From Eledone cirrhosa (Eukaryota): 64,000 nucleotides of DNA. Made by a program: the position numbers and the translations under genes. Shown here piece by piece: positions 39,546 to 40,289 of this stretch. Every line of letters starts with the position of its first letter. Position 1 is the stretch's first letter. The stretch spans positions 51,336,001-51,400,000 of the forward strand of contig OZ024745.1 in assembly GCA_964016885.1 (NCBI GenBank), written 5' to 3'. The notes under the pieces were generated by a model. That model worked only from the letters and a program-made list of their open reading frames with translations, searched no databases and was not told where the DNA came from.

Positions 39546-39700
39546 TATATATATATATATATATGCAGAGGTTATATTTAATTTGTTGGGATACAACAAG
39601 CTTAAACATATTTTTATAACTGATATAAAGCACTCAACAAATTATTGGAGTAAATATACAATATATTAACAAATGGAAACTATATTTATAAAACCATATT

Positions 39701-39766
39701 TATTTTATTATACATATTTCAAGGGCCACCAAGTCAAATTATGATGCGCTTTCATCAGATAAAATA
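39701..39766 (-). ncRNA. Type I hammerhead ribozyme, intact core
   Basis: tattttat-CTGATGA-aag(c)gc...gc(c)ctt-GAAA-tatgta-TA-ataaaata (8-bp stem I). Confidence 0.72.
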
Positions 39767-39906
39767 CAATACAGATTAGTTTTATAAATAAATATTGACA
39801 TACCCCGAAAAAAGACAACCTTAAAGGTTGGAGCTATCCAGGAAGCCATTAAGGTTGTCTTTTTTCAGGGTATGTCAATATTTATTTATAATACTAATCT
39901 GTATTG

Positions 39907-39972
39907 TATTTTTTCTGATGAAAGCGCACCATAATTTGCCTTTGTGGCCCTTGAAATGTGTATAATAAAATA
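39907..39972 (+). ncRNA. Type I hammerhead ribozyme (second arm)
   Basis: tatttttt-CTGATGA-aag(c)gc...gc(c)ctt-GAAA-tgtgta-TA-ataaaata. Confidence 0.68.
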
Positions 39973-40289
39973 AATATGTTTTTATAAATATAGTTTCCAT
40001 TTGTTAATATATTGTATATATATATATATATATATATATATATATATATATATATATATATATATATATATATATATATATATATATATGTGTGTGTGTG
40101 TGTGTGTGTGTGTGTGTGTGTGTGTGTGTGTGTGTGTGTGTAGTGTGTGTGTGTGTGTGTGTGTGTGCGTGTTTGTGTGATTGTTAACACCTGACCATTT
40201 TGCAGACTTTAACACAGCTTGTTAATACAGCCACTTTACGAAAACCCTTTGTTTGCTTAGAATAAATGAACCTTGAAAATTAGAAGTAA

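Follow-up and report, generated by a model that had tools for sequence, protein, structure and literature searches.

A head-to-head pair of Penelope-like pseudo-LTRs in Eledone cirrhosa as a probable product of twin priming

A fold-back element of Eledone cirrhosa was examined within a window of 64,000 nucleotides (GenBank accession number OZ024745.1, assembly GCA_964016885.1; positions 51,336,001 to 51,400,000 of the forward strand). Judged by sequence homology, each of its arms is the ribozyme-bearing pseudo-LTR (pLTR) of a Hydra-type Penelope-like element (PLE), and the fold-back was probably formed as an ORF-less head-to-head insertion of two such copies, in a single event, by twin priming on one RNA.

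The fold-back locus and its hammerhead ribozymes

The features of the fold-back (locus L001) and of related units in the window are listed in Table 1. The 171-bp inverted arms, 24-bp spacer and (TA)n setting given in the original prediction were found to be real, with arms differing at 8 positions, and the coordinates were correct. An asymmetry had been overlooked, as the extension at 39565-39653 belongs to the left arm only. Most of the spacer is formed by the 5' ends of the two arms and not by foreign DNA; the arms join at 39834-39835, where they overlap by 2 nt, and 6 nt are deleted from the right arm. The 3' ends of such units lie at about 184 (site 1) or about 276 (site 2), each followed by TA-like bases in the source; from unit position about 276, ORF-bearing copies read ATATAT onward and reach the start of the ORF after ~50 nt. 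We infer that the left arm is a cDNA started at site 2 and that the 3' end of the right arm marks a start of the RT at site 1. Both flanks are (TA)n, and a TSD could not be read there. The minisatellite directly to the left holds 9.6 copies of its unit (96%).

It is unlikely that the palindrome is an assembly artefact, because the arms are ~5% apart and the same layout is present at many loci. Contigs of sequencing run X1 cover 30/30 bins of the fold-back, including the junction bin, and those of run X2 cover 29/30. No listed contig crosses the whole fold-back and the contigs are mostly other family copies, so read support is weak.

The whole window was scanned on both strands for hammerhead cores with paired P1, P2 and P3, and this pattern identified five sites, all inside Penelope-like ends: two in the fold-back, one at 13724-13787, and two in an inverted pair at 57.5-59.5 kb. 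The two outward-facing hammerheads with intact cores that had been predicted were both present at the places given, and the right one has one U-U mismatch in P1 (6/7 pairs). The core pattern is CUGAUGA...GAA with a 3-bp P3 and an AUA cleavage triplet. When 6 sequences from 4 subfamilies were compared, 5/16 pairs had changed on both sides, a count reached in 2/500 shuffles, the structure having been drawn from these same 6 sequences, which leans the result toward support. Rfam gave nothing at gathering score in the whole window and, at E<=10, 13 sub-threshold matches in the fold-back with no hammerhead family among them; these generic miRNA-type hairpins lie far below threshold and were taken as chance. 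As Rfam provided no library match, the hammerhead call rests on the pattern and the covariation. Both hammerheads are proposed to be inherited parts of the pLTR, with cleavage here a prediction. Cleavage was ruled out as the maker of the 5' end of the unit, the cut site being mid-unit.

Retention as a functional hairpin or bidirectional ribozyme cassette, acting as a source of endo-siRNA or an ADAR substrate, would fit the single long hairpin predicted for the 454-nt fold-back transcript (-250 and -252 kcal/mol) and the stems of at least 100 bp found in 18/84 loci (below). It is nevertheless extremely improbable, given that the arms are 4.7% apart compared with a family median of 2.2%, that P1 of the right ribozyme is mismatched, that minimal PLE hammerheads did not cleave as monomers and cleaved weakly as tandem dimers in PMC4209133, and that there is no A>G excess in shared (3/31) or all rare variants. 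Such an excess, as a fossil of ADAR activity, was sought in 224 arms and none was found (A>G 69, T>C 60). Read-through transcription would, from whichever side it came, make the antisense arm first, and the sense ribozyme is therefore predicted to end up locked in the 171-bp duplex; an inverted pair cannot form a tandem ribozyme dimer within one RNA. This copy probably has no function, and L001 is probably an ordinary, inert locus.

Table 1. Features of the fold-back and of related PLE units, in coordinates of the window
Feature	Position	Strand	Remarks
Left (TA)n target remnant	39546..39564		adjoins 42-bp minisatellite 39157-39561
Left arm of fold-back (L001)	39565..39835	-	tailed pLTR copy, unit positions about 10-276
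Left-arm tail, 89 nt	39565..39653	-	on left arm alone; outer end is putative RT start site 2
Fold-back arms	39654-39824 and 39849-40019		171 bp each, inverted; 8 mismatches between them
Minimal type I hammerhead, left	39701-39766	-	intact core, P1 7/7, P3 3 bp with 2-nt loop; predicted cut after 39709
Spacer (head-to-head junction)	39825-39848		24 bp; mostly 5' ends of both arms
Right arm of fold-back (L001)	39834..40014	+	tail-less pLTR copy, unit positions about 2-184
Minimal type I hammerhead, right	39907-39972	+	intact core; predicted cut after 39964
Right (TA)n target remnant	40015..40089		followed by (TG)n up to 40179
Solo tail-less pLTR, third subfamily	12203..12382	-	separate insertion; extra G before +1; hammerhead A15.1 lost
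N-terminal part of 737-aa RT-GIY-YIG ORF	12437..13300	-	young sister family; 98% aa identity to L074
Inverted tail-bearing pLTR of sister-family insertion	13683..13917	+	contains hammerhead 13724-13787

Family identity and copy number

The description of the element as ORF-less and built from retroelement pLTRs holds. Elsewhere in the genome, ORFs are framed by pLTRs that share 87-94% identity with the left arm. At most of 18 loci these same-subfamily pLTRs frame remnants of an RT-GIY-YIG ORF, with about 70% protein identity to L074, a locus of a young sister family. The pLTR continues into such an ORF at L116/L223, L237, L238, L239, L245 and others, and at L119-L122 a 3' UTR lies beside the unit, together with GIY-YIG coding remnants in two of them. 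One ORF of the fold-back subfamily is an open frame of 743 aa whose RT motifs are altered, and no catalytically intact RT of this subfamily was found among the 18 loci. The sister family has many 745-aa open frames (135 matches scored). In 16 of its copies the order is pLTR - ORF - 3' region - pLTR, and in most of these the copy at the 5' end is inverted; the pLTR of this family and the fold-back unit are 81% identical.

Assignment to the Hydra clade was set by motifs and target, compared with the descriptions in the available text of PMC8557442, where the features of the clade are DKT, a CxCX5C linker, CxxC and CxH in the EN, and no CX2-5CxxC. The proteins of L074 and L237 contain RWR, DKT, CxCx5C, CxxC and CxH and lack CX2-5CxxC, and so carry the Hydra motifs with RWR replacing RWK; the (TA)n insertion of the fold-back is also a trait of the clade. 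The single short ORF (about 740 aa), the hammerhead, and the CxxC and CxH around a conserved E/N are further likenesses, whereas the RWR and a length of about 3.8 kb per unit, compared with generally <3 kb, are unlike the clade as described there (PMC8557442). More broadly, the features of an EN+ PLE were found, namely a pLTR shared with an RT and GIY-YIG element, a minimal type I hammerhead within the pLTR, a partial tandem pLTR-ORF-pLTR arrangement, an inverted 5' copy and a one-sided tail. The nearest Atlas clusters consist of cnidarian, ctenophore and mollusc proteins with HTH_animal and GIY-YIG, the latter in 26-50% of members, and Pfam gave no match for four PLE fragments of the window.

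Homology of the arms to the units at 12195-12382 and 13690-13918 had been proposed and stands, the matches covering 12198-12358 (77% over 176 columns) and 13683-13912 (81% over 239). A single element with matching ends at 12195-13918 was ruled out because the two pLTRs are of different subfamilies; these units belong to two subfamilies other than that of the fold-back and are not the ends of one insertion. The solo copy at 12203-12382 starts at the same +1 position (see below) and sits in (TA)n that interrupts the neighbouring ORF. An inverted pair of a different PLE family is located at 57513-59479, with 258-nt arms (96%) 1451 nt apart, two outward-facing hammerheads, a GIY-YIG remnant at 58603-58866 and extra sequence beyond the right arm only. 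More divergent PLE remnants with RT and GIY-YIG (28-45% aa identity to L074) are at 7112-7792 and 26927-30311.

Other repeats were also observed in the window. Positions 6143-11780 contain a ~620-nt repeat in five copies that are 97-99% alike, four of them arranged in tandem, and pieces of it also lie beside loci L006 and L056. A CUGAUGA-type motif was seen by eye on its minus strand. It is a candidate retrozyme-like repeat, and is absent from the five sites of the hammerhead scan. A LINE-type element with endonuclease and RT occupies 20496-25491 on the minus strand, with a zinc-knuckle ORF1-like frame at 24496-25491, which a further ORF1-like frame at 60726-62678 resembles.

A 96-bp junction query found a match in 40/40 scored loci, out of 808 candidates, and a ribozyme 25-mer gave 3,837 exact matches (reversed control, 0). 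An unbiased set of 84 loci, not selected on structure, was obtained from the first 100 matches listed, and comprised 58 loci with 60 head-to-head pairs and 26 solo copies; of 116 arms chosen independently of the ribozyme 25-mer, 58 carried it. In 19 unbiased pairs, one attached to an ORF, the stem was at least 100 bp long and the gap <100 bp, and 18 short loci of the 84 sampled (about one in five) have a stem of at least 100 bp. On a fair estimate, short fold-backs of this subfamily number several hundred in the genome, the figure being given in this form because fold-backs have two chances of being sampled.

The arms of one locus are more alike than arms of different loci, with a median divergence of 2.2% within and 5.3% between loci, and 31 rare variants are common to both arms, compared with 0.65 in cross-locus controls (61 loci in each case). 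A further 152 rare variants occur in one arm only, therefore the arms are not subject to continuing homogenisation.

A non-autonomous family, MITE-like or retrozyme-like, whose mobile templates are entire palindromes or solo minis driven by a promoter of their own, would account for the high abundance, the presence of the 25-mer in half of the unselected arms and the recurrence of junction classes, and the shared rare variants imply many source loci. However, the recurring junction, originally put forward as a sign that the palindrome moves as a unit, proved not to be one: 29 distinct spacers were found among 36 junction-selected loci, grouped into a small number of classes by short homologies close to the 5' end of the unit. 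Within the junction class of L001 (15 loci), 9 loci had the tail on one side, 5 had it on the opposite side and 1 was unscorable. The symmetric TIRs and constant structure of a MITE were not found, as the tail is one-sided and arm lengths and junctions vary, and a MITE identity was ruled out on this asymmetry and variability. Head-to-tail monomer arrays, a retrozyme trait, were absent from the loci mapped, which are solo or head-to-head. In a tree of the arms, built on a 133-nt core and of poor resolution, UTR-bearing copies interleave with short ones, so the latter form no separate clade, and ~82 of the first 100 listed of 668 non-G copies continue into the base of the element's 3' UTR. The minis also lack the sequence downstream of site 2, which, by analogy with an anole PLE (PMC11167929), would be needed for binding. 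With short and UTR-bearing copies interleaved and rare variants shared by the arms, a separate non-autonomous family was rejected as very unlikely, though some minis may act as source genes themselves. Because spacers and tail side vary, arms share variants and short copies interleave, these sequences indicate that each fold-back was assembled where it lies and does not move as a unit.

Tails, arm content and the proposed route of insertion

Exactly one tail was found in 105/108 scorable head-to-head pairs from four locus sets, 19 pairs with an unscorable end being excluded; the count was 47/49 in the unbiased set and 25/25 scorable pairs (28 loci) in the sister family. The exceptions are two pairs in which both arms are tail-less (L131, L180) and one two-tail pair (L116), where the 5' pLTR runs into an ORF whose true 3' end is tail-less. 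As solo copies of the unbiased set end at either site (10 and 14 at one or the other, 2 unscorable), mixed pairs would make up about half of the total if the choice were independent.

The content of the arms bears on how they were made. The tailed arm begins >10 nt later than the tail-less arm in 32/47 unbiased pairs, and it stops at or beyond position 170 in 17/47, whereas equally short tail-less arms were found in 3/47 (P=0.001; the BLAST cut-off may miss very short AT-rich tail-less arms). Head-to-head PLE repeats have been ascribed to self-priming (PMC3846280), in which a single cDNA folds at its 3' end and copies itself. This snap-back route agrees with the rare variants common to both arms and with the many junctions at a short near-palindrome close to +1, and it could cover the minority (3/47) in which the tailed arm is clearly longer on the 5' side. 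It is contradicted by the 32/47 loci in which the tail-less arm reaches further 5' and only the other arm is tailed, by the 17/47 in which the arms scarcely or do not overlap, and at L001 by positions 2-9, which are in the tail-less arm and missing from the tailed one. Since the arms hold mutually exclusive sequence, neither is a copy of the other, and snap-back is therefore out for most loci, L001 included; arm content conflicts with the route set out in the available text of PMC3846280. The central near-palindrome, with a 1-nt loop, would also be better suited to the annealing of two ends than to a hairpin. Overall, self-priming is very improbable as the origin of the fold-back.

The two arms nevertheless appear to share a lineage. 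Subfamily-diagnostic columns were discordant between arms in 0-6 loci, compared with 15-29 expected (ten columns, of which five represent one indel), and in 26 non-overlapping core/tail pairs the arms matched by lineage at 0.41, compared with 0.22 +/- 0.04 (0/1000 shuffles as high). As these arms do not overlap, arm-to-arm conversion is not the cause of the match. Arm pairs formed cherries in the tree in 20/61 cases and the partner was strictly the nearest arm for 30/122 arms, and with so few of either an origin of both arms from the same molecule is not proven.

These data bear on dual priming, in which an asymmetric protein dimer would prime on two RNAs of one source or subfamily, using site 1 of one and site 2 of the other, and the products would be joined head to head. 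Such a route accounts for the one-tail rule and the lineage match, gives overlapping arms with no need of strand displacement, and suits the PLE dimer predicted in PMC11167929; for L1, twin and dual priming could not be distinguished (PMC2837659). It is considered unlikely here, as the excess of short tail-only arms (17/47) over short tail-less arms (3/47) is expected if one RNA carries both primers and an RT runs into the other one, and as co-active subfamilies are seldom mixed within one locus.

The start of the tail-less arms is also constrained, with 16/47 in the unbiased set beginning within -2..+7 of one fixed position, pointing to run-off at the 5' end of the RNA. The suggestion of an extreme 5' truncation was therefore half right: the fold-back is a very short PLE product, but the fixed +1 would be an RNA 5' end and not a truncation point. 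The context of +1 is CC|ACT in long copies of the fold-back subfamily and TC|ACT in the sister family, and an Inr-like TCACT within a PLE pLTR has been noted (PMC3846280). In (TA)n-flanked copies an extra G precedes +1 at 21/74 places, compared with 7 for C, and in the sister family G was found in 48 of the first 100 listed of 126 non-C copies, with 683 copies having the templated C. An extra G is the trace expected from copying a 5' cap. Microhomology with the partner arm can account for many of the G residues before +1 in fold-backs, and the 12 breaks at +1 in the unbiased set (G 3, A 4, C 4, T 1) show no clear G excess. AATAAA is located 11 nt before +1 in the fold-back subfamily and is absent from the sister family; poly(A)-type cleavage could also create the +1 end, though this possibility is weakened. 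The minis would be complete copies of the 5' leader of a transcript that begins in the pLTR, with priming at the first pLTR, alongside ordinary truncations.

Twin priming on a single RNA, as read from footprints in the genome, would proceed as follows. A transcript would start at the initiator-like +1 (CC|ACT) in the pLTR and would probably be capped. The RT/GIY-YIG protein would nick both AT-rich strands and use the RT at two internal RNA sites, as in the biochemistry of the family (PMC11167929). One (TA)n end would then prime at about 184 and the other at about 276, a pattern seen in the copies that this mechanism may explain; with one (TA)n end per site and a TA-like template after both, there would be exactly one tail per pair. 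A tail-only arm would result if the cDNA started at site 2 halted close to the primer at site 1, and a fold-back as at L001 if it displaced through to the 5' end of the RNA. Finally, the two cDNA 3' ends would be joined through microhomology near +1. The resulting palindrome is probably a by-product, dead on arrival.

The ORF-bearing arm is usually tailed in the sister family (L073-L088) and usually tail-less in the fold-back subfamily (L223-L244), and the two may differ in which primer runs furthest. Junctions of L031, L052, L059, L188 and L264 contain short repeated copies of the first bases of the unit, which look as if the RT had re-primed several times at the 5' end of the RNA ahead of the joining step.

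Comparison with known systems and significance

Inverted, truncated PLE pLTRs with a tail at one end have already been published (PMC8557442, PMC3846280), and the mechanism of tandem and inverted insertions and of one-sided tails is called unresolved in the available text of PMC8557442. The fold-back resembles the EN+ PLE insertions described in these two sources in its head-to-head pLTRs, tail at one end, microsatellite target, hammerhead in the pLTR and Inr-like TCACT. It differs from them, as far as they are described there, in that the arms are pLTR only, with no ORF, and in a tail of about 90 nt compared with 30-40.

The purified anole Poseidon PLE, PAc, nicks and extends both strands in vitro, and two adjacent internal starts define its tail (PMC11167929). 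Two fixed internal RT starts that define the tail, a hammerhead upstream of them and AT-rich targets are common to PAc and the elements studied here, whereas PAc is from another clade and has its start sites inside the ORF, not upstream of the ORF start as here. No link between the two start sites of PAc and inverted insertions is drawn in the available text of that paper. As in L1 twin or dual priming (PMC2837659), both target ends would prime, with inverted fragments and microhomology or a small deletion at the join. L1, however, uses a variable second site and yields fragments without overlap (PMC2837659). Here both sites are fixed, and the frequent complete overlap of the arms would require strand displacement or two RNAs. 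Animal non-LTR retrozymes (bioRxiv 10.64898/2026.07.22.740005) are likewise non-coding, hammerhead-bearing and related to PLE pLTRs; they are described there as head-to-tail monomer arrays, whereas the units here are solo or in head-to-head pairs and contiguous with an ORF-bearing element.

A proposal of twin priming for PLEs was not found in the literature searched, which covers few subscription journals, and the term is absent from the PLE-centred papers among the matches listed. The chances are about even that PLEs in general combine twin priming at two fixed RNA sites, displacement, and hairpin by-products from a capped +1. If so, the downstream enzyme displaces the upstream cDNA, which would explain the inverted pLTR and the one-sided tail together, and an active element would seed hundreds to thousands of near-perfect hairpins of 100-190 bp, because the capped +1 is only about 280 nt before the start sites. 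The set of copies provides rules that can be counted, namely exactly one tail, a lineage match of non-overlapping arms, a fixed +1, and tail-only arms that extend no further than site 1. These rules exclude snap-back for most loci and could be tested directly in the in vitro system described in PMC11167929. In genomes of this kind, palindromes that look 'MITE-like' can arise as by-products of retroelements, and many potential dsRNA hairpins may be left behind by an active PLE.
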